From Candidatus Acidiferrum sp. (GTDB lineage Archaea > Thermoproteota > Bathyarchaeia > Bathyarchaeales > Bathycorpusculaceae), in assembly GCA_035623315.1 (NCBI GenBank), contig DASPTR010000189.1, forward strand, positions 1 to 55,998: 55,998 bases of DNA, read 5' to 3'. The notes beneath the pieces were generated by a model, which searched no databases, was not told the DNA's origin, and saw only the letters and a list, made by a program, of their open reading frames with translations. Made by a program: the position numbers and the translations under genes. Positions 14,082 through 30,074 of this stretch are shown here, in pieces (position 1 is the first letter of the stretch; every line of letters begins with the position of its first letter).

Positions 14082-15326
14082 CTATTCTGCTACCTCTGCC
14101 CTTTTCTTGCAAATAAGGAGTATGGCCGCCGCTGTAGGCAGTTCGATTTTCTGGTTCTTGTATGGACCGAAAGTTTCATCTCCGATCCTGAATTCAGGCG
14201 CTTCTGAGATCAAAACACTAACAGTTCCCTTTGTAAACGCTACCGCCATTTTCATAGGGTCAAAATCTTCAATGCTCGATGCTGAAAACTCTGACTTCTC
14301 CAAGCCTGTTTTCCCATGCAAAGCGCCGCCCAGCCTGATTAGTCTATGTATGTCCGTCGTGACGACAGTGTCCACCTGTGCAGACAGAGAATCCACGCAA
14401 TGATCAACTATTCTCGCCCACGTTTCAAGACCCACCCCTTTCAGAGCAAGGTAAGGCCCCACATCGTCCCAACTTTTTAAGATTGCCACCCTGTTCTTTG
14501 TAATTGTCTCTACTACGTTTCTTCTCAGCTCCAGTTTCGCATAGTCCTCATTCTTTCCCTTCAGAACAAGATCATACATGCATTTGGCGATCCTCCCGTG
14601 CCAACCAAGGTCATCGAGACGAGGAGCATTCGGAGGTCTCGCTTTGGTTGAGTTTTTTCTGTCGACACTGGTAAGACCAACGTCTAGCCCTAGAGCCGTC
14701 ACGTAGTCTACGATTTCTTTGCGTGCGCCGGCGTCAAGGGTCTTAACAGCCTCGCTCTCTACGTGCACGTGATAACCTCGGTGGCCAGAAAAGAAAACAT
14801 GCATGTCCTTTGGAGAAAAGCCAAAATCTTCAAACAACATATTCACAAGTTTGGCCGTCTCTCCCCCTGCGGATTTTAAACATTCTTCACAGGGCCAAGT
14901 TTTAGCATCAAACCTCTGTCCACTGCACGCTGGACATTTCTCAGGAATCAAGCCCTTCCCTTCAAAGCCGCAATTGCTGCATTTCCAAATGTCATGAATC
15001 TTACCGCAAGGCGCATCTATATGGTCAGCATCAATGTCGAAAACTAGATCCGCTCCCAACCAACCCTTCATGTCCATTTCCGCCAAAGGATTCTCATAAT
15101 ATGCACAGGAGAAATAGGCATCTGAAGGGACACAAGTCCGCAAATATGATCCAAGCTCATCGATGCTACCGAAGCACTTGTGCCGAACCATCTGGCCTTC
15201 AAACAAAGCGAAGCCAAACTCTCGACTCTTCATTACCGACGGGAACGAGATGCGAGGCTGATCTTGGTAGTATTCGGCGAAATTCTTCTTAACGTACAGC
15301 AAAGAAGGGTGATTCACTGGGGACAT
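14082..15326 (-). CDS. priS: DNA primase small (catalytic) subunit PriS
   Basis: AEP motifs are present: DLVFDIDADH (catalytic DxD) and FFSGHRGYHVHV (sGxGxH). A zinc-knuckle insert reads CSNCGFEGKG...CPACSG...CEEC. Confidence 0.9.
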   Translation of the reverse strand: MSPVNHPSLLYVKKNFAEYYQDQPRISFPSVMKSREFGFALFEGQMVRHKCFGSIDELGSYLRTCVPSDAYFSCAYYENPLAEMDMKGWLGADLVFDIDADHIDAPCGKIHDIWKCSNCGFEGKGLIPEKCPACSGQRFDAKTWPCEECLKSAGGETAKLVNMLFEDFGFSPKDMHVFFSGHRGYHVHVESEAVKTLDAGARKEIVDYVTALGLDVGLTSVDRKNSTKARPPNAPRLDDLGWHGRIAKCMYDLVLKGKNEDYAKLELRRNVVETITKNRVAILKSWDDVGPYLALKGVGLETWARIVDHCVDSLSAQVDTVVTTDIHRLIRLGGALHGKTGLEKSEFSASSIEDFDPMKMAVAFTKGTVSVLISEAPEFRIGDETFGPYKNQKIELPTAAAILLICKKRAEVAE

Positions 15327-15366: not shown

Positions 15367-17991
15367 TCAATATTGGGGGAAACTTTGATAACCGAAGGGG
15401 TAAACTTCCTGGGTAAAAAATTGATCGTAGGGGGATTTTGAGAATACCACGATCATAACGCCAGTTATGTTCTGATCCTGTGGCATAGGTACGTCGAGAC
15501 TTGAAGCTTTAACCTCATTTTTCGCTAGTTCATAAGAACTGGACGCAAACACTCCAGACGAGAATGGATAACCTGAACAGAGCATCTGAGCAATGTCATG
15601 AGCTATTACGTCCTCCCCTGTGGCCGTGAAAACCGTTCCAATTCCACCTCCGAACAGAAGTAGATGACCAGCTCCTACAGGTAGACTACTTATGGATGTT
15701 CTTGCATCCGTTGAATTGGTAGTCTCGCCAAGCACGAGTCCGTTGACTCTCTCAACTTCTGAAATGAGTGCACCCATGGAAGCATCTGGATATTGCAAAT
15801 CGAGCGCACTTGAGAAGCCAGACTGAATTGTCGCGAACTCTGATTGCTCAGAAGGCTCGCCGATAGGTGCGAATCCGAGAATTTGATCTTGAACTTGCGT
15901 GAAATTGTTTCCTGAGAAATGTTCAATGCTGCCGTTTCTCAAACCTGTAAGGTATGCAAAGGCATCTCCGATCCAGATTAGCGTCCCTCCTGCTTCGAGC
16001 CAGCCATGGACGATGCTTTCATTATTCGAATGTACAGTTTCTGGAAAGACTCCTGAAGGAATTATTATGACTGAATCATAGTCCTGCTCCATTACACTTC
16101 TCAATTCATCGGCATTGACGATTTCTATCGACCCTTTGTATCCCCTGAGGCGAAGTTCAACTGGCGCATGGTCAAGGAAACCAGCCCATCCAGCCCTTGT
16201 GACAAAAGACGATGGATAGGCGTCATCGTAGTAGATGAAAACTGCCTTGTTCGCTGTTTCATTCATGCCAGATGTTGCTGGAGTAGCAAAAACCTGCAAG
16301 TCAACCGGATAACTACCAGATCTTATGTTGTATCCTATTCCAACGCGATTATCAAGTTGGCTTTCAACGTAGACGGTAGAGAAGCTGACGTTTTGTTGTA
16401 CCAAAGGTTGAGCAAATGCTAGGACTTGACCAATCAATAAGAAAATGAAAATGAACATTAAGACTTTCGAGGGGTTAACGGTCCACTTTCTCATTTCAAG
16501 GCTTATCTTTACACCGCTCGGTTGACTCTCTTTCTGGGAAAGTTTTGAAGAAATCTGTGGCTTGGCAGATCCAAGTAGAGATGCAAACGTGCCCGTTAGA
16601 CATGAGAACAAACCAATTACGCCAGCAATTCCAGAGATCAGAAGGACAATCGACCCTCCTCCGTTTTTGAAAAAGTTCGCATTTGCGTATACGGATCCAA
16701 CTCCGATTATCTGCGCGTACACGGCTGCCGGATAGAAATAGTAGAGAGGCCCAGCTACTCCGATCAGGAAAACTAACGCGGACAACGAAATCAAAAATAG
16801 ATTCTTCAGATTACGATGATAGAGACCATAGCTAAGGACTAGGAATGGAAGTATCCAGAGAATATACTGAGGATTTACGGTGAACGACGTCAAGTATATT
16901 GCCACCAAAACTGCGATATGACCCAAAATAAAAGTTTCCAGTGAGTCTCTATGACTTAGGAAAGAACTGAGGCTTATCAATAGGATCAATGCGACGAGCA
17001 GAATTTCCAAACTTACCGATGCGAGTCCTGCGCGACCCGCAATGTAAGGCAGTACCCACTGTAGCCCAGGAACATAGGCAATGTTAAACAGAGTCAAGCC
17101 GCCTAAGGAGGTTAAAATCGTCCTGCTGAAAACATCATGAATAATGTTGCTGTTGATCAGAGGTATCAAAAACACGAAGAAGGACAACGACATGCCTCCA
17201 ATAAATTTTGACCAGCTAACGAAAATCTGCTTGACGCTCTCTTCAGCTCTCCCCGATTTGCCCTTTTCCAACCTTGCAGCTGTAAATAGATACAATGGAG
17301 CCAGAAAAATCGGGTAGATTTTGAATAACGTGCCAAGACCCAATGCGATTCCGGATGCCAGATATTTCCGTTTGTAAAACAGACAAAAGGACAATACGGT
17401 CATCAAAGCAGGGAGGACGTCGAATTGCCCATGAATAGAGTCTATGTAGATAACAAGGGGATTGAAAAACCAAAGGATAAAAGAGAACCTCGCCTCCTTT
17501 TCTTTCCCGGACTCTCGTACAATATCGTAAATTATGATTCCTATTAGCAGATCGGCAATGAACAATGGAATCTTTGAAAGAAGATTAAACAAAGGAGATG
17601 TGATTACTGTAGGGAGTTCCCAACTTTCAAGTGGTAACACCAAAGTATTAGTCGCGACTCCCAACACGTTTGGACTTGTCAAAACGCTGACTAAATCTAG
17701 GAAGGGATACTCGATGTATGCCCACAATGGGGGATAGCTGAAAGAATTTGTCGTATAGATATTAAATCCTCTAAGCAGATCATTAATGGCCCTGTACAAG
17801 ACAGCCATATCAGATTGATACGCAGTGAAAGGAGCAAAGACAAGCCTCAAAATGACCCCGACCAGAATGAGACGCAAAAGGGGGTATGTCTTGAATCTCG
17901 AGAATTCTTTAGACATTCTATCTAAGTACGACGAATGCCATGATGCCATAGAACCCAACCGTTGCTGTGCCATCGTTGTTTTTCTATACAC
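15367..17991 (-). CDS. Fusion protein: GT-C fold glycosyltransferase module (DUF2029/GT87-like) plus an uncharacterised extracytoplasmic domain of about 340 aa
   Basis: 874 aa. There are more than ten hydrophobic segments in residues 35-480, with the first-loop motif SDMAVLYRAINDLL..NIYTTNSFSYPPLWAY. An anchor helix lies near residues 515-535, followed by a sequon-rich domain (ELRLRGY, IIIPSGVFPE, GGTLIWIGD, LPVGAGHLLLFGG, DIAQMLCSG). It is collinear with 23749..26373. The GTG start is uncertain. Confidence 0.6.
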   Translation of the reverse strand: MYRKTTMAQQRLGSMASWHSSYLDRMSKEFSRFKTYPLLRLILVGVILRLVFAPFTAYQSDMAVLYRAINDLLRGFNIYTTNSFSYPPLWAYIEYPFLDLVSVLTSPNVLGVATNTLVLPLESWELPTVITSPLFNLLSKIPLFIADLLIGIIIYDIVRESGKEKEARFSFILWFFNPLVIYIDSIHGQFDVLPALMTVLSFCLFYKRKYLASGIALGLGTLFKIYPIFLAPLYLFTAARLEKGKSGRAEESVKQIFVSWSKFIGGMSLSFFVFLIPLINSNIIHDVFSRTILTSLGGLTLFNIAYVPGLQWVLPYIAGRAGLASVSLEILLVALILLISLSSFLSHRDSLETFILGHIAVLVAIYLTSFTVNPQYILWILPFLVLSYGLYHRNLKNLFLISLSALVFLIGVAGPLYYFYPAAVYAQIIGVGSVYANANFFKNGGGSIVLLISGIAGVIGLFSCLTGTFASLLGSAKPQISSKLSQKESQPSGVKISLEMRKWTVNPSKVLMFIFIFLLIGQVLAFAQPLVQQNVSFSTVYVESQLDNRVGIGYNIRSGSYPVDLQVFATPATSGMNETANKAVFIYYDDAYPSSFVTRAGWAGFLDHAPVELRLRGYKGSIEIVNADELRSVMEQDYDSVIIIPSGVFPETVHSNNESIVHGWLEAGGTLIWIGDAFAYLTGLRNGSIEHFSGNNFTQVQDQILGFAPIGEPSEQSEFATIQSGFSSALDLQYPDASMGALISEVERVNGLVLGETTNSTDARTSISSLPVGAGHLLLFGGGIGTVFTATGEDVIAHDIAQMLCSGYPFSSGVFASSSYELAKNEVKASSLDVPMPQDQNITGVMIVVFSKSPYDQFFTQEVYPFGYQSFPQY

Positions 17992-18138
17992 CGAGCAAGT
18001 CTAGGTTGACTTAAAATCAGAAAAGCTTTTTGTTCAGACCTACCAGAAAACGCACCTAGCGGAAGAAGCGTTATTAGAATGACTTTCTAATTCAATTAGG
18101 GTATCGACCCTTTTGACCATATCCAAGGCGAATCGGTA

Positions 18139-19179
18139 ATGCTGAATGACTATCCTCTAGTTTCAATTCTCGTTTTGAACTGGAATGGAGAGAAAGTTAT
18201 CAGACAAAGCTTGAATTCCGTAAAAAGACTGAGATATCCAAACAAAGAGAAAATAGTCATAGACAACAATTCAACTGATAGATCTATAGAGATTATTCAA
18301 AAAGAATTTCCTGATTTTCAACTTCTGAGAAATGACAAGAACCTTGGATTTGCCGCTGGCATGAATGCAGGAATCAAAAAGGCGAAGGGAGATTTCCTTC
18401 TTCTCTTCAATAATGACGCCGTAGCCGATCCAAGAAGCCTTTCGACACTTGTCGAAACAGCTATGTCCAATTACTCCATTGGTTTGGTTGGCGGAATGAT
18501 CCTCTTTTACAAACCCGACGATGTTATCTGGTCATTAGGAGGAATGTTCGACCCGCTCACTGGCACAATCTGGTCTGAAGGCTTGGGACAAATCCTCTCC
18601 ACAAAAGTCAGGAACAGCAAAGCAATATTCGACATCGACTACTTGTCGGGGTGCGTACTTTTGCTAAAGCGCGAGGTCATAGACAAGATAGGTTTGTTTG
18701 ATGAAGGTTTTTTCTTGAACGGTGATGATATAGATTTTTGTTTGCGGGCACGAAGGGCTGGTTACCAGTGCGTGTTAGACCCCTCAGCGTTGATTTGGCA
18801 CAGCGGATCGCATTCATTAAAAAAGTTACCTCTCAGAAGCTACATTGAAAGGGAAAAGTCGGACTTCCGAATCGTTCTGATTCATACACCGATCCCATTC
18901 TTGTTGTCTGCTCTCATGTTCCAACTCATCGCCATGCCTTTCGCTGAATCGCTGGTCTTCAGAGGAGAAAACACTTCAACAAAGACTAGGTGGCGTGCGC
19001 GGATCTTCGCTTTTAGTCAGAATCTGAAGATGCTGGAAAATATCCTTCGCGCTAGGGAGCAGGTACAGAGGCTTGGCATGCTCAAACCTCAAGTCAGAAC
19101 TCTTAGACTTCTAGGACTTGGTTCAACGAGAATAAAATCTCGCGAGTTCTTCATGGGCAAACTGCTTAAGAAGGCATAG
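18139..19179 (+). CDS. Family 2 glycosyltransferase (WbbL/rhamnosyltransferase-like)
   Basis: Blocks seen: VSILVLNWNGEKV, VIDNNSTDRS, LLFNNDAV (DxD-equivalent), GDDIDFCLRARRAGY. Confidence 0.85.
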   Translation: MLNDYPLVSILVLNWNGEKVIRQSLNSVKRLRYPNKEKIVIDNNSTDRSIEIIQKEFPDFQLLRNDKNLGFAAGMNAGIKKAKGDFLLLFNNDAVADPRSLSTLVETAMSNYSIGLVGGMILFYKPDDVIWSLGGMFDPLTGTIWSEGLGQILSTKVRNSKAIFDIDYLSGCVLLLKREVIDKIGLFDEGFFLNGDDIDFCLRARRAGYQCVLDPSALIWHSGSHSLKKLPLRSYIEREKSDFRIVLIHTPIPFLLSALMFQLIAMPFAESLVFRGENTSTKTRWRARIFAFSQNLKMLENILRAREQVQRLGMLKPQVRTLRLLGLGSTRIKSREFFMGKLLKKA

Positions 19180-19185
19180 CACACA

Positions 19186-20472
19186 TTGATGAGACGAAGC
19201 CTGATGACAAGGATCGTAGCTCTGGTTGAATTCTGTCCTCCAAGACTTGGAAGTGATAGAAGGATATATGAAATGTTAACCAGGTTACCCGAGCATCATG
19301 AAGTACACTTCATCGTGTTTCCTCCAAGCAGGGCTCTCTTAGGCATGATACCCCTGCCCGCCGAACACCTGAAAGAGACGCAAGTTACTTTGAAAGATAA
19401 TATTAAAGTCCACTACATTTCGCTGCCAACCTATCTGCGGGCACCATGGAACAACTACATAATTGGATATTTTCTGACCCTTCTCTACGTATCGCGCAAA
19501 GTTGTCCAAGAGATCAGGAACATTAACCCGCTGGTCATAACTCTTAACTATCCATCCGCTTACACAGGACTCGTGGGATTCTCAATAGGCAAACTGCTCA
19601 ATCGAAGAGTAGTCGCGGATTTTAATGACATGATTGCGGAGTACACGATGAGCCTCCTAGATCATGAACCAGAAAACTCAGGCAAAATGTCAAAGAGGAT
19701 TTCCAAAGATATAATTAGGAAGCTTCTAACAACAATTCAAGACTACATTATAAGTAATGCTGATGCCGTTACAGCAGTCACGAATCAAATCATTGACTAC
19801 TGTAAACTGCACGGCATTAGGAAGGACATCTATCTAATACCGGATGGAGTAGATGCAAAAATATTTGATCCTGAGAGATATTTCGGGGATGCTACGAACA
19901 AAATAAGAAAAGAATTTGACATTAAAGAAAATGAAAAAGTTGTGGTGTATATCGGAAGATTGGAAAAATGGGCCGGAGTTCAAATTGTACTGAGATGTGC
20001 TGAAAAACTCAAGGACTCCAACATAAGATTCCTTTTGATAGGAGAAGGAACGTTAAAGCTAAGTCCACAAATGCCAAATGTAATCTCTTGCGGACCAATA
20101 CCTCATGAACAAGTCCCAACTTATTTGGCGGCTGCAGATCTCGTACTGGTGCCCATGGAACAAGATGTCGTTGGAAATTCCGCTGGTCCTTTGAAACTGT
20201 TTGAAGCAATGGCAATGAAAAAGGCTATAATCGCTTCTAATACCCGAGGAATCAGCGAGGTCATGACAAACAATGTGGAAGGAGTCTTGCTTCCACAAGA
20301 CGAAAACTTGTGGGCAGAGGCAATAAAAGAATTGCTCATGAATTCAAGTAAGGCGTCTGAGCTAGGAGAAAACGCTTCAAGAAGGATAAGAGCTGAATTC
20401 GACTGGAGCGTTTTGGTAAACAGGCTTGCTACAATTTTATTACCTGCGGAAGGCACCAAAGCCCCATGTTAA
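19186..20472 (+). CDS. Family 4 (GT-B) glycosyltransferase
   Basis: The C-terminal GT1/GT4 block is VVVYIGRLEKWAGV...LLIGEG...GPLKLFEAMAMKKAIIASN (E-x7-E region). The ATG at 19189 is the likely start. Confidence 0.85.
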   Translation: MMRRSLMTRIVALVEFCPPRLGSDRRIYEMLTRLPEHHEVHFIVFPPSRALLGMIPLPAEHLKETQVTLKDNIKVHYISLPTYLRAPWNNYIIGYFLTLLYVSRKVVQEIRNINPLVITLNYPSAYTGLVGFSIGKLLNRRVVADFNDMIAEYTMSLLDHEPENSGKMSKRISKDIIRKLLTTIQDYIISNADAVTAVTNQIIDYCKLHGIRKDIYLIPDGVDAKIFDPERYFGDATNKIRKEFDIKENEKVVVYIGRLEKWAGVQIVLRCAEKLKDSNIRFLLIGEGTLKLSPQMPNVISCGPIPHEQVPTYLAAADLVLVPMEQDVVGNSAGPLKLFEAMAMKKAIIASNTRGISEVMTNNVEGVLLPQDENLWAEAIKELLMNSSKASELGENASRRIRAEFDWSVLVNRLATILLPAEGTKAPC

Positions 20473-20657
20473 GGCCGTCAAAGTTGTTTCTTCAAAGAAT
20501 GTCAGAGGTCTGATTCAAGTAATGGAAAGAAAAAACTAATTTGAACATTGCACCTGAGATTGTGACGTTAACTGGCAAGATTTTTCCAACTCTCGAGAAA
20601 TAGTACAAAAACGCAATTGCTCCAATTGAGTCAAGTCAGAATCTGAAGTACTTTTGC

Positions 20658-21740
20658 TTACCCATTTTGACCAGCCGCGTTTACGAACTGACGTCTGAAC
20701 AATATGCCGTCGCTATTCCTGGAAGTGTATTCGAGAACTTCGAAGCCCACGACATCTGGTCCAATGGGTAAACTGCAGTTGCCATTTATTGATCCTTGCT
20801 TCGACAGGTCGTAACTCTGGTACCATGGAATTGAGGACGTATTCATTAGGAGAACGCCGGAACATAGTATTTGAGCTATGTCTCGGGCAGCGAGCTCTGG
20901 ACCATCGTCAGCCATACTCTGCGTCAAAAAAAAACCAAAGATTATGATTTTCCCCGAGCCAACTGGAATCATCGACACTGAAGACCTGAGCCTGAAAGTG
21001 TTGGGTCCCCCTATTTTCCCCAGGGCCAGACCGTCCGCATCCCAGACCATTTGCAGAAGTGGTGCTTGTTGAATGAGGTCATATGTCACATCTAGCGCAC
21101 TGCATAAAGGTGATGGATAAACGCCGAAGGTCGGTGTGTCGTTGGTTGTGTATTCAAAGAAGCCACCCAAGCCGAGCATTTTCGAACCGTTTTCCTGAGG
21201 ATTCTGAGTCATATTCCAGGTTATGTCTTCTTCTTTCATTCCTTTCTCTAAAGAGTAATAGCCAATGTCGAAACCGAACCATACCAGTATTCCTCCTGAA
21301 TCGATCCAAGGTTTGACTAGGTTTACTTCATTGGAGAAAACGTTTGAAGGGAAGCCTCCTGACGCCATAATCAGTATTGCCGTCTCGTTGTTCACTAGAA
21401 TGTTTTCCAATTCAGTGGCATTCACCAGTTTCGGGTCGTTTGAGTATCCTCGGAGGCGAAGCTCAGCATCCAAGTGATCTTGAAGCATGGCGCTGAATAT
21501 CCAGTCAGTTGCAACCGTTGGATAGTCTAGGTCATAGAACACGTAAACGGGCAGATCGTTGGGAACCTGATCTACGGGGGTTACCACCACGGTTGCATTT
21601 AATGGCAGACCTGAAACAATCTGATAGGTCATATTCAAGTAGTTTTCTCTGCCCTCTGTCTGGCTTGTTATGCTGAGAATATTGAAAGAACCTGCACTTG
21701 GTTTAGTAGCTGGCAAATACCAGAATAACTCACTGAACAA
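20658..21740 (-). CDS. Stand-alone copy of the uncharacterised extracytoplasmic domain. The start codon is problematic.
   Basis: It is a paralog of 26463..27584 and of the C-terminal halves of both 874-aa proteins (VYVFYDLDYP, ELRLRGY, IMASGGFPSN, GGILVWFG, IPVGSGKIIIFG, DIAQILCSG). The signal-anchor residues KWQYLLAAILVLLL are encoded upstream of the first canonical start (TTG at 21740). Confidence 0.5.
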   Translation of the reverse strand: MFSELFWYLPATKPSAGSFNILSITSQTEGRENYLNMTYQIVSGLPLNATVVVTPVDQVPNDLPVYVFYDLDYPTVATDWIFSAMLQDHLDAELRLRGYSNDPKLVNATELENILVNNETAILIMASGGFPSNVFSNEVNLVKPWIDSGGILVWFGFDIGYYSLEKGMKEEDITWNMTQNPQENGSKMLGLGGFFEYTTNDTPTFGVYPSPLCSALDVTYDLIQQAPLLQMVWDADGLALGKIGGPNTFRLRSSVSMIPVGSGKIIIFGFFLTQSMADDGPELAARDIAQILCSGVLLMNTSSIPWYQSYDLSKQGSINGNCSLPIGPDVVGFEVLEYTSRNSDGILFRRQFVNAAGQNG

Positions 21741-21777
21741 TAACAGAACCAGAATAGCTGCGAGCAGGTATTGCCAC

Positions 21778-23172
21778 TTATTTGACGTTAGCGAGCACGC
21801 CTCCCACCCATAGGTTCTTTATCAATAACAAAATCGTTATGACCAATCCGACAAAGCCAATTGCACCGAACAAGATACATAAATCTTGCGTCAAATAAGG
21901 CGAAATCACGCCGGGCAAAATCTGATAAGCAGCAATTTCGTTGGTCAGTATTTGTGGATTATATAGTGGCGTAAACATTGCTAACGGATAGAGAAAAATT
22001 TCTGGCCCTTGCAAAGAAAAATAGAAGAATAAACCTGCAATTGAAAGCAGAAGGACTGGCCAAATGAAGCTTCTTCGTTTAGAAGTAACGACGATCAGTA
22101 ATGGAATGATCCACAACAAATATTGAGGTTGTACCGTAATAGGAAGAAACAAATAGATCAAGCTTGCAAAGAAAACCGTTGCAAAAAGTATTCTTTCACG
22201 ACTAAATTCAAAGGATTTGACGAATACTAAGGCCAAAGCGAGGCATATTAGGGGGTAGAGTGCGAACAGAGTCTGAATTCCTCCTTTGTATTGATTGACT
22301 AGGTAAGAAACCTTAGAATCTGCCGCAAAAAACCACTGATTGAGCCCGCCAGTGACTTCGATTTCTTGAGAAATACCTGAGTACGTCAAACCTGTGTATT
22401 CAATGAACAATGGGGCGAAGAGAACAAGAGGAACAAGACAGCCAGCAGCGAATCTTAAGAAAAGCCGTGAATTAGTTTGGACACTGTGGACACTGAAGGA
22501 ACCCCCAAATTCCCTGAACAGTAGAATAACACTTAAAGGAATAGCGATGAAGATCGGGGAAGTCTTGGTCAAAGTTCCTAATCCGAAAGAAAGTCCCGCT
22601 GAGAAATATCTGTTCTTGAAAACGAAGTAAGCTCCTAGAAGTATGAAGAATCCAACGACGACGTCGTATGACCCGTTAAGATAAGAGATAGCCAAAACAA
22701 AAGGATTGAAAAGCCAGATCAGGAAGCAACGTTTAGGGGCTTTAGAATCAGGAGCTATTTCTTTGACGAAATAGTAGATCAAAACTCCAGTCAGAAGATC
22801 GAAGCATAGAAGAGGAATCTTCCAGAGAACAAGAAATAGAGGACTTATTTCACTACTTGCGATTATTCCTTCAGGTCTGATTCCCGTCAACATATTCGAC
22901 ATCGACTGGAAATCAAACGTGGCACCTAACCGATAGGCCACGCTGAACAAGGGAAAAGTTATGAAGTGAATGAAAGGCGGATAGATTGAAGCATGAAGAG
23001 CATACGGATCATTGCCACTCATCAAATATGCCAAGGCAGACTGGTACGCACCTATGTCATAGGGCCATATGAAGTATGGCATCAAAACAATGCGTAAGAG
23101 CAAACCTAAGATTAAGAAGCCACTGAGCTCATGGGCAAAGAGCCGATGGATAAGTGAAATGAACCTTTTCAT
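21778..23172 (-). CDS. GT-C fold polytopic glycosyltransferase (DUF2029/GT87-like), stand-alone
   Basis: 464 aa and multi-TM. The loop motif is WPYDIGAYQSALAYLMSGNDPYALHASIYPPFIHF. It is a paralog of 27571..28956 and of the N-terminal halves of the 874-aa proteins. Confidence 0.6.
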   Translation of the reverse strand: MKRFISLIHRLFAHELSGFLILGLLLRIVLMPYFIWPYDIGAYQSALAYLMSGNDPYALHASIYPPFIHFITFPLFSVAYRLGATFDFQSMSNMLTGIRPEGIIASSEISPLFLVLWKIPLLCFDLLTGVLIYYFVKEIAPDSKAPKRCFLIWLFNPFVLAISYLNGSYDVVVGFFILLGAYFVFKNRYFSAGLSFGLGTLTKTSPIFIAIPLSVILLFREFGGSFSVHSVQTNSRLFLRFAAGCLVPLVLFAPLFIEYTGLTYSGISQEIEVTGGLNQWFFAADSKVSYLVNQYKGGIQTLFALYPLICLALALVFVKSFEFSRERILFATVFFASLIYLFLPITVQPQYLLWIIPLLIVVTSKRRSFIWPVLLLSIAGLFFYFSLQGPEIFLYPLAMFTPLYNPQILTNEIAAYQILPGVISPYLTQDLCILFGAIGFVGLVITILLLIKNLWVGGVLANVK

Positions 23173-23173
23173 T

Positions 23174-23446
23174 TCATGGACCTGCGATGGTTTCCATGTT
23201 TAGCATCTTAGTTGCTTGAGCGGAGGAACCGACTATGATTTCATCAATCACGAAATCATATAGCTCTTGAATTGACAGACTTTGAAGCAAGTTCAGAATG
23301 TTTTTCTCTTCATTGCGCACGATAACGCCGATGCTGACTTCGGGCATTGAAAGCCTAGTTGACCTTGCCTCGTTTTGAATGTTTGGAATTCCGTTTCCGA
23401 CTTCTTTGAAACCTACCTCCATTGAGGTGTTTTCAGTTGATTTCAC
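23174..23446 (-). pseudogene. GT2 glycosyltransferase remnant with an in-frame internal deletion (90 codons left)
   Basis: Residues EVSIGVIVRNEEKNILNLLQSLSIQELYDFVIDEIIVGSS match ISVGIIVHNEDKNILNLLQNVSGQKLRDFMIDEVIVVSS of the intact 373-aa GT2 (28953..30074). The sequence then jumps to AQATKMLNMETIAGP*, matching the extreme C-terminus AQTTKNLNSRDTSRSAG*. About 235 codons, including the catalytic core, are missing. Confidence 0.6.
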
Positions 23447-23513
23447 AAGAATCTCCTTTGTGTCAGAATCCTAGTGGCAACTATACTGAACCCAAAACGG
23501 TCATAAAGTTTAT

Positions 23514-23639
23514 GGTATATGCATAGCCACTGACCACTGCAGACGTTCACAGATCAGAAAAGACATCTACCTAATACCTGACGGCGTTGCAAAGATACTA
23601 TTACCAAGTCCCAACGACGCTGTCAAATCACTATATTAG
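23514..23639 (+). pseudogene. Fragment of a GT4 glycosyltransferase gene
   Basis: Frame 3 reads ...IATDHCRRSQIRKDIYLIPDGVAKIL...*, compared with VTNQIIDYCKLHGIRKDIYLIPDGVDAKIF in the intact GT4 (19186..20472). The nucleotide stretch aaagacatctacctaatacctgacgg resembles aaggacatctatctaataccggatgg at 19822-19847. The fragment has no start and no GT-B domains. Confidence 0.45.
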
Positions 23640-23748
23640 AATTAGATGCGAAACATAGCAAATGACGTGATGAGTTGTTCTAATACTCTGTACATGCCAA
23701 GGGTCAACCTGCAAAATTGAATACTTGGGAATTCAATAGTTCGTCGAC

Positions 23749-26373
23749 TCAATTCAATAGGCTATAGTTGCCACCGATCGGTAAGAATTGTCGTGAGAAA
23801 TATCGATCATAAGGAGACTCTGAGAACGCAACAATCATGACCCCTGTGATGCCCTGGTTTTGAGGCAAAGGTATGCTAATACTTCCAGACTCACCTTCAT
23901 TCCTTCCTAGTTGGTGAAGACTGGATGTTACGATTTGTGATGAGAAGTCAAAACCAGAACATAGAATCTGTGCGATGTCATGAGCGATTGCGTCTTCTCC
24001 ACTTACCGTGAATACCCTTCCGACACCACCTCCAAACAGTATCAGTTGTCCGCTTCCAACGGGAACATATGCGATTGATGTCCTAGGATATTCTGAAGAA
24101 GTAATCTTCCCCAGTATTTCGCCTCCATGTTTTAGAACTTCAGATACGTAAGCTCCTGTTGTTGCGTCTGGATATTGCAAGTTAAGAGCATTTGAGAAAT
24201 TAGATGGAATGGTGGCAAGCCTTTCGTCTTCCTTAGAAGCATTGTCAAATAAAGTGAATCCCAACATCTGATTCTGGACTTGGCTAAAATTGTTTTCGGA
24301 GAATAGCTGAATAACCTTTCCTTTATAACCAGAGAAATAAGCAAATGCATCACCTATCCAGATCAATACTCCACCGGATTGAAGCCAATTTCCGATCAGA
24401 CTTGCATTGTTTGCATGGACGGTTTCAGGAAGAACCCCAGATGGTATCACGACTACAGAATCTGGATTTGCTTCTATTACATTTCTCAATTCCTCTGCAT
24501 CCACAATTTTCACGGAACCATTGTAACCTCTTAGTTTGAGTTCAACTGGTATATGGTCGATGAGACCCATCCAGCCTATGTCGCCAACCAGCGAAGAAGG
24601 ATAGTCTGGATCGTAATATATGAAAACCTCCTTGTCAACGGCACTTTGCAATATGGAAGTCAATGGGGTTGCTGAAATCTGAATGTCCAGAGGATATTCT
24701 GCAGATTTTACCGTGTAGTTTAACATGGCCGAGTTTCCACCCGCAAAATTGATATTCTGAATTTGAAAATTCACATTTTGCTGAGCCAGAGGAAGCACGT
24801 ACGCAAGAGATTGGCCAAGTACTAAGACTGCGAGTACAAATGCTAGGATTTTTGACGGATTGATTGAATTCCAATGAATTTTCAGTGACAGAGTCTCGTT
24901 GTCCTTCAGCTTCCGTTCGCCATGGTCAGTCACCTTTTGAGATCTATCTTCTTTTTTTAGAAGAATCCTCAGCGTACTCTCCAAACATAGAATGATCACG
25001 ATTGTTCCTAAGATTCCTGACGTGAAGAGAATTGGCCAGCCGCCGTAATTCTCAAAGAAGTTAATACTAGAGTACACTGAATTAGCACTTAGGAGTGGGG
25101 TAAACAAGGCTAGTGGTCGGAAAAAGAAGAGGAACCCTCCTATCCCTATTAGAAACATTGAGGCTAATATTGAGAGCAAACTCAGTTTTATCAAGTTGTG
25201 TTTGTAGAGGCCCCACTCTAGAATTAGGAAAGGAAGTACCCACACTATATATTGCGGGTTTACGACCAGAGTAGTGACGTAAACTACTAATATGGTGGCA
25301 GTATGTCCTAGAAGAAAGGTTTCGAGAAAGTGTCTCCGACTTTTGAAGCAAGCATAGCTTACAAGGAAAATCGCTACGAAAGAAGCAATCAGCATACTTA
25401 ATGAAACTAGGCTGGAGTAAGATGAGATCAGTTGCAGTAACCACTGCAATTCAGGAAGTTCCACAACACTGAATACAGTTAAGCCTCCGACGGAAGCTAC
25501 GCTTTCGGTCCTGGCGAAAATGTCGTGGATAATATTGCTGTTTACGAGGGGAAACAAAAAGATAGAGAATAGAATTAACATTCCCGCTAAGAACCTAGAA
25601 CATTTTGACAAGATCTTTCGGAGATTTTCTAGCATCATCAGAGACTGATCGCGTTCAAGCTTGGCGATAGAGAAAAGATATAATGGAGCAAGGTAAATCG
25701 GAGAGATCTTGAAAAGGAACCCTAAGCCAATCGCGATTCCGGATGCGAAGTAGTTGCGGTTACACAACAAGCAAAAAGCTAGCACCACCATTAACGTTGG
25801 GAGCACATCAAATTGCCCCTGAACTGAATCAATGAGAATGACGAGCGGATTCAAGAACCATAAAATGAAGGCTATTTTTGCTTGTTTTTCATTTCTCAGA
25901 TCTCTCGTTATTTTATAAAGAATGAGACCTATCAGCACATCAGCGACGATTAGAGGAAGTTTGAATAGAAGATTAAATAGGGGCGAAGTGACGACTGCTG
26001 GTAGCTGCCAATTCTCCAATGTCAAACTTTGAGTACTGATGGACACGCCTAACAGCTTAGGACTTACAAAGAGACTTGTCAATCCTATGGCTGGATGCAT
26101 GGCGTATGCCCAAAGCGGAGGATAGCTAAAGGAGTTGGTCGTATACACGTTGAGCCCAGCCAACAAATCATTTGTTACCGTGAAAAAGGTACTTACATCA
26201 TAGGGATCAGCTGAGAAGGGAGCAAGAGCGAGTCTTATTGCTAGTCCGATGAGAAATAGTCCCAGCAGGGGATGCCTTCGAAGATATGCATAACTATTAG
26301 ACAAACCATGTTTTTGAAGCGAAGTTTCCATCCAGTGTATCTCCAAGAAGTCTTTGAAGTCTCCTCGTCTCAC
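23749..26373 (-). CDS. Fusion protein: GT-C module plus uncharacterised extracytoplasmic domain (second 874-aa paralog)
   Basis: It has the same length and architecture as 15367..17991. Motifs seen: DPYDVSTFFTVTNDLLAGLNVYTTNSFSYPPLWAY, ELKLRGY, VVIPSGVLPE, GGVLIWIGD, VPVGSGQLILFGG, DIAQILCSG. Confidence 0.6.
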   Translation of the reverse strand: MRRGDFKDFLEIHWMETSLQKHGLSNSYAYLRRHPLLGLFLIGLAIRLALAPFSADPYDVSTFFTVTNDLLAGLNVYTTNSFSYPPLWAYAMHPAIGLTSLFVSPKLLGVSISTQSLTLENWQLPAVVTSPLFNLLFKLPLIVADVLIGLILYKITRDLRNEKQAKIAFILWFLNPLVILIDSVQGQFDVLPTLMVVLAFCLLCNRNYFASGIAIGLGFLFKISPIYLAPLYLFSIAKLERDQSLMMLENLRKILSKCSRFLAGMLILFSIFLFPLVNSNIIHDIFARTESVASVGGLTVFSVVELPELQWLLQLISSYSSLVSLSMLIASFVAIFLVSYACFKSRRHFLETFLLGHTATILVVYVTTLVVNPQYIVWVLPFLILEWGLYKHNLIKLSLLSILASMFLIGIGGFLFFFRPLALFTPLLSANSVYSSINFFENYGGWPILFTSGILGTIVIILCLESTLRILLKKEDRSQKVTDHGERKLKDNETLSLKIHWNSINPSKILAFVLAVLVLGQSLAYVLPLAQQNVNFQIQNINFAGGNSAMLNYTVKSAEYPLDIQISATPLTSILQSAVDKEVFIYYDPDYPSSLVGDIGWMGLIDHIPVELKLRGYNGSVKIVDAEELRNVIEANPDSVVVIPSGVLPETVHANNASLIGNWLQSGGVLIWIGDAFAYFSGYKGKVIQLFSENNFSQVQNQMLGFTLFDNASKEDERLATIPSNFSNALNLQYPDATTGAYVSEVLKHGGEILGKITSSEYPRTSIAYVPVGSGQLILFGGGVGRVFTVSGEDAIAHDIAQILCSGFDFSSQIVTSSLHQLGRNEGESGSISIPLPQNQGITGVMIVAFSESPYDRYFSRQFLPIGGNYSLLN

Positions 26374-26462
26374 CGCCTCTTGAGGACGAGTCTGAAGTCT
26401 GATATTATTGCTTTCTGAAATCTTGATAAGCTTTGGGGGATGAGCCCGGCGCTGATCGGTTC

Positions 26463-27584
26463 TTATGTTCCAATGAATCTGCGATAGAATAGGACTCCGT
26501 CACTCTGCTCACTAGTATATTCGAGGATGACAAACCCGACGATGTTAGAATCGGCTGACAGATTGGAAACATCAATCTTCGTTTCAGCATGTGCCAGATT
26601 ATAGCCTCGTTGCCATGGTGCAACACTAGGATTCATTTGCAAGACGCCTGAACACAGAATTTGAGCTACATCCCATGCCACAAGTTGTGGACCATCCCAA
26701 GCAAGGCTAGGCATCAAAAAGAAACCGAAAATAATGATTTTTCCCGTACCAACTGGAACCATTGAAATAGATGACCGTAAGTTGAACTGGTCCTCTCCTC
26801 CAATTTTCCCTAAAACAACGCCACCTGCGCCTTCTACCATGCGAACCAACGGGGCATATTGAATGAAATCATAATTCGTATCAAGAACATCTGAAAGAGA
26901 TGATGAGTAATTACCAACTTTCGGAGCGGACTCTGGAGGATAGTAATCGAAAAAACCTTCAAGACCAAGCTCCGTCGAGCCATTTGACTGAAAATTCTGA
27001 CTCATATTATAAGTGATTTGCTCCTTTCTCATTCCTTTCTTCAGCACGTACCACCCTATGTAATCACCTAACCAGACTAATACTCCACCCGACTCAATCC
27101 ACGGCTTGACCAAATCCTTTTCCTTGGAGAATACACAGGAAGGAAATCCTCCTGAGGCCATCACAACGACAGCAGACTTGTTCGTCGACATGATGTTTTC
27201 CAATTCTGGCGCATTCGCGAAACTGACCCCAGATGAGTAATCTCTCAAGTGTAGCTCGGCTTGTAAATACCCCAACAACACGGCGCTCAATATCCAGTCA
27301 GTCCCCACAGTCGGGTAATCGGTGTCATAGAACACGAAAACTGGCAAATCGTTGGGAATTTCTTCTACAGGAGTAACAACTATATTAGCATCCAAAGGGA
27401 GGTTAGCCTCGAATCTATAGGTTATGTTAGTGGTGCCTGTTTCTCCTTCTGACTGGTGGACCACACTCAAAATGTCAAAGGACCCACCTTTGCCGTTTTC
27501 AATTGGCGAATACCAAAGGATCTCGCCTACTAGCAACAATACGAAAATCAACGCTATGACGTATTGCCACCTATTTTTCATCAT
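26463..27584 (-). CDS. Signal-anchored stand-alone copy of the uncharacterised extracytoplasmic domain
   Basis: 373 aa. An N-terminal anchor MMKNRWQYVIALIFVLLLV is followed by the same conserved blocks (VFVFYDTDYP, ELHLRDY, VMASGGFPS, GGVLVWLGD, VPVGTGKIIIFG, DVAQILCSG). The ATG overlaps the end of the upstream GT-C gene by 14 nt. Confidence 0.6.
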   Translation of the reverse strand: MMKNRWQYVIALIFVLLLVGEILWYSPIENGKGGSFDILSVVHQSEGETGTTNITYRFEANLPLDANIVVTPVEEIPNDLPVFVFYDTDYPTVGTDWILSAVLLGYLQAELHLRDYSSGVSFANAPELENIMSTNKSAVVVMASGGFPSCVFSKEKDLVKPWIESGGVLVWLGDYIGWYVLKKGMRKEQITYNMSQNFQSNGSTELGLEGFFDYYPPESAPKVGNYSSSLSDVLDTNYDFIQYAPLVRMVEGAGGVVLGKIGGEDQFNLRSSISMVPVGTGKIIIFGFFLMPSLAWDGPQLVAWDVAQILCSGVLQMNPSVAPWQRGYNLAHAETKIDVSNLSADSNIVGFVILEYTSEQSDGVLFYRRFIGT

Positions 27585-28956
27585 CTTTCACCCACAAGCT
27601 CTTAAGCAATAAAACTGTTGTGAGCAGCAGCCCTAGGAAACCAAATCCTCCAAAAATAGTACACAAGTCTAGCCTCAGATTTAACGAGAAGAAACCTGGC
27701 AAATTCAGGTAGTTATTCACGCTTGCAGCTAGCACTTGCGGAGGATACAACGAGGTAAACATAGCCAATGGATAAAGGAACACTTGTGGACCCTGCACAA
27801 AAAGAACGAATAAAAGTCCTGCAACTGAACATATAATTATGGACCAAACGTAACGTTTCGCGATTGATAGCAGAACAACGAGCAAGGGCAACACCCATAG
27901 CAAATATTGCGGCTGAACCGTCATAGGAAATAAGAAATATATTAATTCCGTAAATAAAGCTGTCAAGAACAGAATGCTCTTTTGGTCTAACTTGAAGAAA
28001 AGGGAAAAAAGGATAGCAATCACCAAAGCAATTGCAGGATAAAACAGGAACGCTGTTTGGATTGCTGAAATATTCGAGTTAACCCACTCAGACCTTAAAG
28101 TATCTGTTGCAAAGAACCACTGATTCAGGCCACCTGTTATTGATATTTCTTTTGAAATTCCAGATGACAACAAGCCCGTATATTCTATAACCAACGGGGC
28201 AAATGAAGCAAGAGGCACCGCACACCCAGACGCGAATCTTAAGAAATCGCGCGCATTTGATTTAAAACGTGAGGTGTTCACCATAACAGTGCCTCTTTTG
28301 AAAAGCAAAACAGCGGCCAGGGGGAAAGCCACGAAGATCGGGGAGACCTTTGTCAGACCCCCCAACCCAAAAGAAAAACCGGCAGAGAAATAGCTACTCT
28401 TGAAGAGGAAGAATGCTCCCAAGAGAATGAAGAATCCAGTTGCAGCGTCATATGAACCGAGTAGAGAGGAGATGGTCAATGTCAGCGGATTGAAAAACCA
28501 AACTATGAAGCAGAGTTTTGATATCCTAGCATCGGAAGTCAATTCCTTAACGAAATAGTATACCAAAATTCCAGTCGCAAGGTCAAAGCATACAAGAGGT
28601 GTTTTCCACAAGATAAGAAATAGTGGACTGATTTCCATCATTGGAATTAGACCGGTAAAGTTGGTTCCTGACAAAATTTCTGAGACAGAGTGAAAACCGA
28701 AAGACATGCCGAATTGATACGCCAGCCTCAACAGCGGAAAAGTGAGGAAGTGTGTCAAAGGGGGGTAAATCGAAGCATGAAGAGCGTAAGGATCGTAACC
28801 GCTAATGAGATAGGCTAAACCTGACTGATACTCACTTATGTCATATGGCCACACGAAATAGGGCATTAGAACAATGCGCAAAAGCAAGCCTAAGATTATG
28901 AAACCACTAAGCTCATGATGGAAGAGGCTCCGAACAATTGAACAGATTTTTTTCAT
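27571..28956 (-). CDS. GT-C fold polytopic glycosyltransferase (DUF2029/GT87-like), stand-alone
   Basis: 461 aa and multi-TM, with WPYDISEYQSGLAYLISGYDPYALHASIYPPLTHF. It has a 4-nt start/stop overlap with the upstream GT2. Confidence 0.6.
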   Translation of the reverse strand: MKKICSIVRSLFHHELSGFIILGLLLRIVLMPYFVWPYDISEYQSGLAYLISGYDPYALHASIYPPLTHFLTFPLLRLAYQFGMSFGFHSVSEILSGTNFTGLIPMMEISPLFLILWKTPLVCFDLATGILVYYFVKELTSDARISKLCFIVWFFNPLTLTISSLLGSYDAATGFFILLGAFFLFKSSYFSAGFSFGLGGLTKVSPIFVAFPLAAVLLFKRGTVMVNTSRFKSNARDFLRFASGCAVPLASFAPLVIEYTGLLSSGISKEISITGGLNQWFFATDTLRSEWVNSNISAIQTAFLFYPAIALVIAILFSLFFKLDQKSILFLTALFTELIYFLFPMTVQPQYLLWVLPLLVVLLSIAKRYVWSIIICSVAGLLFVLFVQGPQVFLYPLAMFTSLYPPQVLAASVNNYLNLPGFFSLNLRLDLCTIFGGFGFLGLLLTTVLLLKSLWVKDDEK

Positions 28957-30074
28957 CCTGCAGACCGCGACGTATCTCTACTATTCAAGTTTTTGGTTGT
29001 CTGAGCAGCATGCCAAATACGATAGTGTCTTTTCCTGACGCAAAAATCCCAGACCCCTAGAATTCTCCCTGATCCTTCCAGCAACATGTATGCAGCTATT
29101 TGAGAGCTCTTGTTAGGGTTTTCTCTTAGATAATTAAGCAGTTCTTTGACTATTTTGACTGAACCCTCAGGAGTCATGGAAGAAACCAAATAGGATTCGT
29201 GGGCTTTAATGAAGAGATGCCCCGAGTAGTGTCTCCTGATCTGATTAAGAAATTCCACGACAGTGTCAGGACCCTTGTTAAAAACGATGGAGTCACTCAC
29301 TCGCACTGTCTTGAAGGCTCTATGGCGTACAGCAGCTTCAACGTACGCTTCATCTGCGGAAACTCCATCAGGTATGCGATTCATGAGGCTCTTTCTGAAC
29401 GCTATAGTTTCGCCATGTCTCTCACACGCGTAGTGCAGTCTCCAATGTATTTCAGCTACAGTTCCCATGAAGCAGCGAGAATCATTAATCGGGACAGGTC
29501 TTGCACTAGTCAGCCCAATTCTTTCGTCTCCGATTATCGGTGAAACGAGGTTCTGTAGGGTTCTTTCGTCAAAAATGACGTCACCACTTGATACCACTAC
29601 GACTTCATTCCTGCTTATCTTTAAGAACTCGTTTATACCTGAAGCCTTACCCTCGGCTACGTTCTGAACCAGAAGCCGAACTTTGTTGTCTTTTTTCATA
29701 TACCTCAGCACAAACTCGTCAGTCTTGTCCTCTGAACCAGAAGAAACCACTATGACTTCATCAATCATAAAATCTCTCAACTTCTGGCCAGAAACATTTT
29801 GAAGCAGATTCAGAATGTTCTTGTCTTCATTATGAACGATTATGCCCACACTAATCTTAGGTATCGAATACACGGGTAGTTCGTTCGTGCTTCGCAGGCT
29901 TGAAACGTTGCTCCAAACATTTCTGAAATTGGCCTGTCTCTCTGAAGCAATATCATTTGGCTGCAATAGAATCTCCTTGTGCAAAAATCCTTGGCAACGT
30001 ATACTGATCTCATAACGGACATAAAGTTTTTGATAACTACAATCCTGAGTCTGGCCGCCGCCCAAATTATGCAA
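28953..30074 (-). CDS. Family 2 glycosyltransferase (intact copy)
   Basis: Blocks seen: ISVGIIVHNEDKNI, VIVVSSGSEDKTD, VVVSSGDVIF (DxD-like), QIRRHYSG (QxxRW-like). The exact N-terminus is uncertain. Part of the extension is shared with the remnant at 23174..23446. Confidence 0.75.
   Translation of the reverse strand: MHNLGGGQTQDCSYQKLYVRYEISIRCQGFLHKEILLQPNDIASERQANFRNVWSNVSSLRSTNELPVYSIPKISVGIIVHNEDKNILNLLQNVSGQKLRDFMIDEVIVVSSGSEDKTDEFVLRYMKKDNKVRLLVQNVAEGKASGINEFLKISRNEVVVVSSGDVIFDERTLQNLVSPIIGDERIGLTSARPVPINDSRCFMGTVAEIHWRLHYACERHGETIAFRKSLMNRIPDGVSADEAYVEAAVRHRAFKTVRVSDSIVFNKGPDTVVEFLNQIRRHYSGHLFIKAHESYLVSSMTPEGSVKIVKELLNYLRENPNKSSQIAAYMLLEGSGRILGVWDFCVRKRHYRIWHAAQTTKNLNSRDTSRSAG

Follow-up and report, generated by a model that had tools for sequence, protein, structure and literature searches.

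A GT-C glycosyltransferase module and its accompanying ectodomain, recurrently fused and split, in a glycosylation island of Bathyarchaeia

GT-C glycosyltransferases build N-glycans, glycosylphosphatidylinositol (GPI) anchors, O-mannans and bacterial cell-wall glycans, and several key members need a single-pass accessory subunit, the role of which is debated (Pbn1/PIG-X, Wbp1/OST48). Here, a stretch of 55,998 nucleotides from an archaeal chromosome (contig DASPTR010000189.1 of assembly GCA_035623315.1, lineage Bathyarchaeia; the whole stretch is referred to as the window) was analysed for four GT-C modules, each of which is accompanied by an ectodomain of ~340 amino acids that was named SOL; twice both parts lie in one chain of 874 amino acids, and twice they are encoded by separate genes. 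Homologies, both folds, the conserved Asp, topology, gene linkage, recurrent fusion and co-divergence of the two parts were established computationally.

Four groups of described systems come closest. GPI mannosyltransferase I (GPI-MT-I) is the eukaryotic enzyme that initiates the mannosylation of GPI anchors. Its single-pass auxiliary subunit Pbn1 is a type I protein built of all-beta lobes and a C-terminal helix; this helix packs against the bundle of the catalytic subunit Gpi14, the channel for catalysis is formed in part by Pbn1, and residue D39 of Gpi14 was assigned as the catalytic base by cryo-EM (PMC12653191). A sequence link to beta-galactosidase has been described for the lumenal GIFT domain of Wbp1, and this domain is proposed to recognise sugar or lipid-linked oligosaccharide (PMC7226087); archaeal WBP1 homologues have been reported only in Heimdallarchaeia (PMC10307638). 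The GT136 enzyme ORF12 and the mycobacterial proteins EmbC and AftD carry C-terminal extracytoplasmic acceptor- or carbohydrate-binding modules, that of GT136 being dispensable (PMC11127046), and in Haloferax a protein-bound glycan receives its last mannose outside the cell through AglD/AglR/AglS (PMC3871713). DUF4350 proteins of arCOG01314 have a signal peptide and a C-terminal anchor and are linked to a secretion or membrane-remodelling complex, not to GT-C genes (PMC5898192). The unit described here resembles known enzymes composed of a GT-C protein and an accessory subunit and is a member of none of them.

All GT-C and SOL modules of the window are encoded on the minus strand. Fused gene 1 (15367..17991, 874 amino acids) joins in one chain a GT-C module (residues 1–478, 16558..17991), a linker (residues 479–506, 16474..16557) that is modelled with low confidence, basic and presumably cytoplasmic, a membrane-anchor helix (residues 507–531, 16399..16473) and the SOL ectodomain (residues 532–874, 15370..16398); the codon of its predicted catalytic Asp61 lies at 17809..17811. 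Fused gene 2 (23749..26373, 874 amino acids; GT-C module at 24946..26373, linker and anchor at 24787..24945, SOL at 23752..24786, Asp59 codon at 26197..26199) is an old paralogue and, as the original prediction from the letters alone had it, is collinear with fused gene 1 (51% identity over 856 residues); its own nearest relatives are fused genes of two other loci (L010 and L001, 61–64% identity; locus numbers are given where loci have to be told apart). In cassette a, the stand-alone GT-C_a (27571..28956, 461 amino acids, Asp39 codon at 28840..28842) is followed by SOL_a (26463..27584, 373 amino acids), in which a signal-anchor helix (residues 6–25, 27510..27569) precedes the ectodomain (26466..27509); the predicted overlap of 14 nt between the two genes is real (27571..27584). 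Cassette b contains GT-C_b (21778..23172, 464 amino acids, Asp39 codon at 23056..23058), which is 88% identical to the GT-C protein of a locus from a Bathyarchaeia metagenome-assembled genome (MAG; L006), and SOL_b (20658..21788).

Formal alignment bore out the correspondence of fused and split forms that had been proposed: the N-terminal ~480 residues of fused gene 1 align with GT-C_a (26% identity, E=3e-25) and its C-terminal ~365 residues with SOL_a (29% identity, E=1e-40), so that homology is supported by pairwise E-values of 3e-25 to 1e-40. A search of all six translated frames of the window with hidden Markov models built from relatives recovered four modules of each kind (E 1e-102 to 1e-150), the number counted before, and no further module of these families elsewhere in the window. 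The motif blocks quoted for both parts are all present. The ectodomains are also rich in sequons, as stated at the outset, with 6–9 N-x-S/T sites per ectodomain against 2.3–3.3 expected from shuffled sequences (2–3-fold).

The pairing extends far beyond the window. An exhaustive search of 1.84 billion cluster representatives (clusters at 50% identity) with the SOL profile gave 598 SOL-containing clusters at E≤1e-3 and 116 at E≤1e-30. Among the best 150 representatives, 120 consist of SOL alone (median 364 amino acids, nearly all with one N-terminal hydrophobic helix), 27 combine GT-C and SOL in one chain and three are SOL–SOL tandems. At all 13 split loci examined, including the two of the window and three very distant ones, a gene of the same GT-C family lies immediately upstream (E 1e-59 to 1e-91) and usually overlaps the SOL start; within this set, the loci with a taxonomic label belong to Bathyarchaeia and Nitrososphaeria, the others being metagenome contigs that carry no label. 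Across 37 units, pairwise identity in GT-C and pairwise identity in SOL are correlated with r=0.94, a value reached by none of 2000 Mantel permutations. The Rosetta-stone argument, which had been made from the four copies only, therefore holds on three counts (27 of 150 best representatives fused, 13 of 13 split loci paired, r=0.94), and a database survey of fused against split forms showed that both recur and that the GT-C neighbour is conserved. GT-C and SOL very probably act together as a single machine at the surface of the cell, and for the split proteins we infer a physical complex.

It could instead be supposed that the linkage is merely genomic, SOL being a glycoprotein substrate or an unrelated surface protein of the operon and the 874-residue fusions being artefacts of assembly or frameshifting. 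The abundance of sequons in SOL fits such a role and indicates that SOL is probably glycosylated itself. We give this explanation hardly any credence, since two independent uninterrupted reading frames of 874 amino acids lie in the window, the 27 fused cluster representatives come from unrelated samples, fused orthologues are found in several Bathyarchaeia MAGs, the structural model of the fused chain has a predicted TM-score (pTM) of 0.85, the two parts co-diverge and the reading frames at split loci usually overlap.

Fusion or fission occurred more than once, because for the split pairs at two loci (L003 and L015) the closest proteins are fused ones, by GT-C as well as by SOL. Fitch parsimony on a neighbour-joining tree of 134 leaves counted 17 changes between fused and split; this count is crude, and with distances that are saturated it is taken only as 'more than once'. 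Further arrangements were seen among distant members. One locus (L014, 5001..7106) encodes a 701-residue protein with two tandem SOL domains and has a gene of the same GT-C family directly upstream; another (L016, 5001..6530) encodes a 509-residue SOL with a large insertion, again with such a GT-C gene directly upstream; and in a third (L012, 6001..9390) one polypeptide of 1129 residues contains a GT-C module and two SOL domains. The last of these adjoins a gene resembling lipid-A acyltransferases and may therefore be bacterial.

All taxonomically labelled SOL members are archaeal, the named ones stemming from MAGs of Bathyarchaeia, Nitrososphaeria, Thermoplasmatota and Promethearchaeota (Asgard archaea; at least one MAG), and the closest homologues of the ectodomains are from Bathyarchaeia MAGs. 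A scan of a genome collection for SOL returned seven loci, all from Bathyarchaeia, so that the taxonomic breadth rests on a few named MAG proteins. Word-index homologue searches gave 27 and 7 matches, close relatives only, to which a search with a 97-sequence profile, capped in its number of candidates, added none. In the databases the homologues are named 'hypothetical protein' or 'glycosyl transferase family 87'.

The structure of fused gene 1 was predicted with AlphaFold2 on an alignment with 24 fused homologues (predicted local distance difference test (pLDDT) 85.5, pTM 0.85), and ~12 helices were placed before residue 478. With this membrane part as query, Foldseek returned Gpi14 (GPI mannosyltransferase I, 9wno_A) with a target-normalised TM-score of 0.67 and probability 1.0, followed by ALG6 (0.61), PIG-U (0.55–0.59) and ALG3 (0.55), all target-normalised. 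When a sequence profile of the fused family was searched against all PDB sequences, GPI mannosyltransferase 1 (Gpi14/PIG-M) was the sole significant match (E=4.7e-13), the following matches being chance. Family and Gpi14 share several motifs, among them the first-loop Asp followed by Y-x-R-x-x-[FY]-x-Y-[PT]-P-L, then K-[LV]-x-x-x-x-x-D-L-x-T-G, W-[FL]-L-N-P-[LM]-V-I and K-[IV]-Y-P. The Asp in the first outer loop is nearly invariant in the 24 fused homologues, is placed on Gpi14 D39 by the profile alignment and is present in all four copies of the window (D61 in fused gene 1, D59 in fused gene 2, D39 in both split proteins).

Pfam matches of the GT-C copies are weak and mutually inconsistent (Alg6_Alg8, PIG-M, GT87, PMT_2). 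With PIG-M (PF05007; cut-off 23.4), fused gene 1 and GT-C_b scored 24.1 bits, whereas neither fused gene 2 nor GT-C_a gave a match; GT87/DUF2029 (PF09594) was matched by fused gene 1 at 25.9 bits against a cut-off of 25, while fused gene 2 stayed below it (21.3 bits) and the split copies had no match. Fused gene 1 scored higher with Alg6_Alg8 (39.2 bits) than with GT87, and GT-C_a matched no Pfam family. The membrane part had been described as a DUF2029/GT87-type transferase; the superfamily was right, and the family was imprecise, since GT87 is marginal and the closest enzymes by profile and fold are PIG-M/Gpi14 (GT50) and then ALG6. The module is a genuine GT-C glycosyltransferase homologous to PIG-M, and probably constitutes a family separate from it.

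For the ectodomain, an AlphaFold2 model of SOL_a (26463..27584) was built on 30 homologues (pLDDT 89.9); it begins with a membrane helix, continues with three beta strands and an alpha/beta domain (residues ~82–312) and ends with four more strands, and we read it as an alpha/beta core inserted into a beta-sandwich. The best Foldseek matches are domains B/C of glycoside hydrolase family GH42 beta-galactosidases (probability 1.0, E ~5e-5), which are non-catalytic, and others are the equivalent parts of GH35, GH164 and GH112 enzymes and two single-domain proteins, STM1381 (3soz) and a ThuA-like one (1t0b), with probabilities of 0.7–1.0; TM-scores are low (0.3–0.45), which is attributed to extra parts of the query. 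In sequence, one distant member (P0173) reaches DUF4350 (PF14258) at 32.9 bits against a cut-off of 30.4, exactly at the position of its SOL-profile match, and weak Pfam matches to DUF4350 (5/97) and GATase1_like (2/97) occur among 97 diverse SOL members. The PF14258 gathering score is reached by none of the four SOL copies of the window or their close relatives. The guess of a flavodoxin-like or class I glutamine amidotransferase (GATase)-like fold of ThuA/DUF4350 type, offered from the letters alone, thus agrees with the Foldseek result on a model of pLDDT 90 and with the weak DUF4350 and GATase1_like matches of distant members.

The same note could assign the soluble domain to no named family, and none was found: the four copies and their close homologues match no named family in Pfam or NCBIfam and none among PDB sequences, where searches with SOL alone and with the SOL profile gave chance matches only, and no well-characterised family was hit. 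An unnamed new Pfam accession (PF27344) is precomputed on three SOL homologues and appears to cover part of the SOL family.

Residues conserved in at least 90% of the 97 diverse members are D87, L128, P148, W162, G166, G167, W171, G173, G259, G279, G281 and F286. By DSSP assignment of the SOL_a model, D87, P148 and G173 sit just after the C-terminal ends of parallel strands, and W162 with G166/G167 just before strand 168–172; in the model, this edge would correspond to the usual ligand crevice of the fold. Within the same 97 members no Cys or His is conserved and there is no Cys-His-Glu triad, so that SOL is not an amidotransferase, and amidotransferase or hydrolase activity was dropped as an assignment.

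More widely, SOL could catalyse a reaction of its own before or after the GT-C step, for example as a hydrolase that trims glycans, a transglycosylase or an amidotransferase-like enzyme, and fusion would then couple two consecutive reactions. This notion has some precedent, as the class I glutamine amidotransferase-like superfamily contains many enzymes and Rosetta-stone fusions often join consecutive ones. We nevertheless consider it very unlikely: besides the missing triad and the lack of any other conserved Cys or His, a single acidic residue is conserved at the level of at least 90%, the nearest structures are non-catalytic domains of GH42, GH35, GH164 and GH112 and ThuA-like proteins of unknown activity, and no enzyme family was matched in Pfam or NCBIfam.

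The same conserved positions bear on whether SOL touches the substrate. As a stabiliser or oligomerisation scaffold only, SOL would hold GT-C protomers together or protect them from degradation, much like PIG-X as first described for PIG-M and like domain B, which trimerises GH42 enzymes. The best structural matches of SOL are this trimerisation domain and the beta-sandwich that follows it, complex formation has been predicted for relatives of the DUF4350/GldG-like kind (PMC5898192), structural Gly and Pro make up most of the conserved residues, and tandem SOL–SOL proteins exist. Yet the nearly invariant D87 and the residues W162 and W171 lie on or beside the edge of the sheet at which ligands usually bind and are more than folding needs, and Pbn1, the auxiliary subunit of Gpi14, contributes to the catalytic channel as well (PMC12653191). 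A purely structural role is thus judged rather unlikely; it overlaps with the explanation preferred below, from which it differs in degree only.

The topology of the unit is the same in both forms. Split SOL proteins carry an N-terminal anchor, and in the fused model a low-confidence basic linker and a transmembrane helix lie between GT-C and SOL, the SOL anchor helix being retained; fusion is therefore a simple end-to-end join that keeps the topology of the split form (C-terminus of GT-C inside, then the anchor helix, SOL outside).

With Gpi14/PIG-M and Pbn1/PIG-X, the unit shares a homologous GT-C protein with a conserved Asp in the first outer loop and its pairing with a single-pass partner, the large domain of which lies on the non-cytoplasmic side. 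Unlike Pbn1, SOL is anchored N-terminally (or follows GT-C in one chain) and has an alpha/beta class I GATase-like core; Pbn1 was absent among the 50 Foldseek matches listed for SOL, and no Pfam PIG-X match was found in the SOL family. GPI-MT-I further differs in its canonical DxD and its PIG-X partner, neither of which is found here, in that the copies of the window score marginally or not at all against Pfam PIG-M, and in that the present hosts are archaea.

With STT3 and Wbp1/OST48 of oligosaccharyltransferase (OST), the unit has in common a GT-C catalytic subunit and a single-pass accessory protein, and the best structural matches of SOL are beta-galactosidase (GH42) domains. The anchor of SOL, however, is at the opposite end, its GT-C partner is PIG-M-like and not STT3/AglB, and the SOL family is found in Bathyarchaeia, Nitrososphaeria, Thermoplasmatota and Promethearchaeota, whereas archaeal WBP1 has been reported from Heimdallarchaeia only. 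Homology of SOL to Wbp1/OST48 was considered and dropped for want of sequence support (none of the 97 SOL members matched Pfam OST48 at E≤0.1) and because of the opposite anchor and the other type of GT-C partner.

Three-component systems (Gtr-type, GT136 ORF12, EmbC/AftD, AglD/AglR/AglS) follow the logic that is proposed here: polyprenyl phosphate is charged with a sugar by a GT2 enzyme, the product is flipped, and outside the cell a GT-C enzyme passes the sugar on to a finished glycan. They differ from the present island, which contains no flippase gene. Several of their GT-C enzymes carry a C-terminal acceptor-binding module on the outside, whereas SOL is class I GATase-like, unlike an Ig-like carbohydrate-binding module, and has its own anchor; being always present, either fused or adjacent, SOL appears obligatory, unlike the dispensable GT136 module. 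Finally, SOL shares its fold class and weak sequence bridges with DUF4350 (PF14258; arCOG01314), ThuA-like proteins and GH42 domains B/C, but its topology is opposite to that of arCOG01314 DUF4350 proteins and its genomic context is different.

On balance, we consider it probable that each unit is a two-part outer-face glycosyltransferase that uses a dolichol-phosphate sugar, with SOL as an obligate non-catalytic partner that caps the acceptor or positions it. A dolichol-phosphate sugar would be made on the cytoplasmic side by short DPM1/AglJ-like GT2 enzymes (30238..30987 and 31193..31993) and then flipped, and an acceptor glycan would be built in the cytoplasm by the GT2 and GT4 enzymes of 18139..20472 and the GT2 enzyme of 28953..30074 and likewise flipped. 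The GT-C Asp at the start of the first outer loop would serve as catalytic base, and one or more sugars would be added outside the cell. The anchor helix of SOL may pack on the GT-C bundle so that the ectodomain sits over the active site, where it would stabilise the enzyme and form or position the acceptor-binding pocket; fused and split forms would be interchangeable ways to the same complex. Precedents are the Gpi14–Pbn1 and STT3–Wbp1 pairs, the carbohydrate-binding modules of GT136, EmbC and AftD and, in archaea, AglD/AglR/AglS. The acceptor is most likely a surface glycan that the GT2 and GT4 enzymes encoded nearby assemble and that is either lipid-linked or already attached to a glycoprotein; different donors or acceptors probably distinguish the four paralogous units. 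In this scheme, donor, acceptor and the part played by SOL are inferred, and the polyprenyl-phosphate linkage of the donor is predicted indirectly, from the neighbouring AglJ/DPM1/ArnC-like GT2 genes.

The enzymes that would supply donor and acceptor are encoded in the same island. The GT2 gene of 30238..30987 (minus strand, 249 amino acids) resembles polyprenyl-phosphate hexose synthases, its NCBIfam matches being the AglJ, dolichyl-phosphate hexose transferase, ArnC and PpgS models (1e-11 to 1e-16), and is a candidate for the maker of the lipid-linked sugar donor. The GT2 gene of 31193..31993 (plus strand, 266 amino acids) is AglJ/DPM1/ArnC-like, and both genes are conserved in the islands of relatives. 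The GT2 gene of 28953..30074 (minus strand, GT-A fold, Pfam PF00535 at 1.9e-19) occupies the same position in two relatives (L005 and L006), and its stop overlaps the start of GT-C_a by 4 nt (ATGA), the two genes being translationally coupled. A cytoplasmic Leloir-type pair, GT2 (18139..19179) and GT4 (19186..20472), lies on the plus strand (18139..20472), and a pair of this type adjoins the GT-C/SOL pair in Bathyarchaeia (L006, L011) and Nitrososphaeria (L003).

Several observations weigh against the proposed donor–partner mechanism. The DxD motif of PIG-M is kept in its second Asp only (YQSD, DPYD, WPYD and WPYD in the window), and the best Pfam match varies by copy (Alg6_Alg8, PIG-M, GT87 or none), which makes subfamily and donor sugar uncertain. 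The NCBIfam matches of the two short GT2 enzymes (1e-9 to 1e-16 taken together) are far below curated cut-offs, and no flippase gene of the GtrA, MATE or MOP family was seen among the reading frames of at least 100 amino acids in 15367..31993. As to SOL, its conserved residues are mostly Gly, Pro and Trp and may be purely structural, it is not a recognised carbohydrate-binding module, and every member of the family comes from a metagenome or a MAG.

A more specific proposal makes the unit the archaeal equivalent of the two-subunit GT-C enzymes of the eukaryotic lumen: it would be a mannosyltransferase of PIG-M type that depends on its accessory subunit and makes a lipoglycan or a GPI-like glycolipid (e.g. 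mannosylated glucosaminyl-archaetidylinositol). Among solved structures PIG-M alone is a significant relative, and at least one Promethearchaeota (Asgard) MAG has the family; no PIG-L-type or PIG-A-specific domain was seen among the scanned neighbours. We regard this proposal as a decidedly long shot.

The window is a segment of an archaeal chromosome that encodes RFC, MCM, GINS, both primase subunits, PCNA, aIF2-alpha, SRP54 and Pus10. Its glycosylation genes (15367..31993) form one island between the genes for the small (14082..15326) and the large (32017..33051) primase subunit; G+C content is 0.42–0.44 in the island and 0.46–0.50 in the flanks, and the non-overlapping reading frames of at least 100 amino acids within it are all GT-C, SOL, GT2 or GT4. 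Related Bathyarchaeia genomes have the same island at the same site, with one split pair and one fused gene (L001, L005, L006; partly L010 and L011), and the window has two of each because two cassettes stand in tandem. Cassette b comprises a 90-residue GT2 remnant, GT-C_b, SOL_b, GT4 and GT2 and is 74–90% identical to one relative (L006), while cassette a and fused gene 2 are ~61–63% identical to two others (L001 and L010). As the cassettes differ in their nearest relatives, the four units are old paralogues or alleles that were brought together and not recent duplicates. The GT2 remnant (23174..23446, minus strand, N-terminal 90 amino acids) lies directly upstream of GT-C_b, is 74% identical to the N-terminus of the L006 GT2 and 44% identical to the intact paralogue of 28953..30074, and looks like a recombination scar at the joint of the two cassettes; the spacer beyond it (23447..23748) contains no reading frame of at least 100 amino acids. 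With its place on the chromosome fixed and its content changing, the island resembles a variable locus for surface glycans. The primase insertion site is reused in several Bathyarchaeia MAGs (L001, L005, L006, L010) with differing cassette content.

Some further genes of the window deserve mention. A membrane protein of the exosortase/archaeosortase family (12468..13535, plus strand, Pfam Exosortase_EpsH at 9.5e-11) adjoins the GINS and primase genes near the island and may be linked to surface-glycoprotein processing; this neighbour is present in L001 too. A UDP-GlcNAc 2-epimerase gene (8608..9720, plus strand) is located ~6 kb outside the island, and in the Nitrososphaeria locus (L003) a gene for this enzyme directly follows the GT-C/SOL pair, which together hint that ManNAc-type sugars may feed the pathway. 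Two paralogous genes of the PAC2 family (proteasome assembly chaperone-like; 9898..10689 and 43916..44671, both minus strand) lie ~33 kb apart.

The start of SOL_b required separate treatment. The split gene had been listed as 20658..21740, a mechanical reading frame beginning with TTG at 21740; the ectodomain gene was confirmed, and its start was not, as the frame runs on through a complete anchor to ACG at 21786..21788, so that the gene is not truncated. Ahead of the anchor helix there is no ATG, GTG or TTG, and ACG stands where the orthologues and cassette a have ATG. GT-C_b ends with AAA TAA inside the 5' stretch of SOL_b, which is in the +1 frame relative to GT-C_b (21770..21800, minus strand), and the junction of the L006 orthologue is identical (L006 5995..6030). 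Between SOL_b and this orthologue, the ratio of non-synonymous to synonymous substitution rates (dN/dS) is 0.17 (dS 0.34), and the 26 anchor codons show six synonymous and no non-synonymous changes; purifying selection and the unchanged anchor residues indicate that the anchor is translated. Judged from the reading frames, translation of SOL_b must proceed either by initiation or re-initiation at ACG or by +1 frameshifting at AAA-UAA, and in the case of +1 frameshifting GT-C_b/SOL_b would give a third fused protein. An exact-match metagenome scan for further orthologues of this junction returned none, only the known MAG and chance matches.

No paper on the GT-C/SOL pair was found in the literature on Bathyarchaeia GT-C enzymes, archaeal PIG-M homologues and new GT-C families, and the initial description as an undescribed surface-glycan modification system remains fair. 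The finding adds a GT-C family and an accessory-domain family, both new and so far from four archaeal lineages, none of which has a cultured representative in this set. For Bathyarchaeia, the low-GC, cassette-swapping island between the primase genes is a concrete candidate for surface-glycan diversification. For GT-C enzymes in general, the family is a natural experiment on accessory subunits, in which a PIG-M-like protein always occurs with one ectodomain and the two have been fused or split more than once, and its single-chain versions are convenient structural targets for the role of an accessory domain in GT-C catalysis. If the proposal of a GPI-like glycolipid were true, the design of a GT-C protein with a single-pass accessory ectodomain, as in GPI-MT-I and OST, would pre-date eukaryotes, and a GH42/GIFT-like accessory domain would be its original partner.

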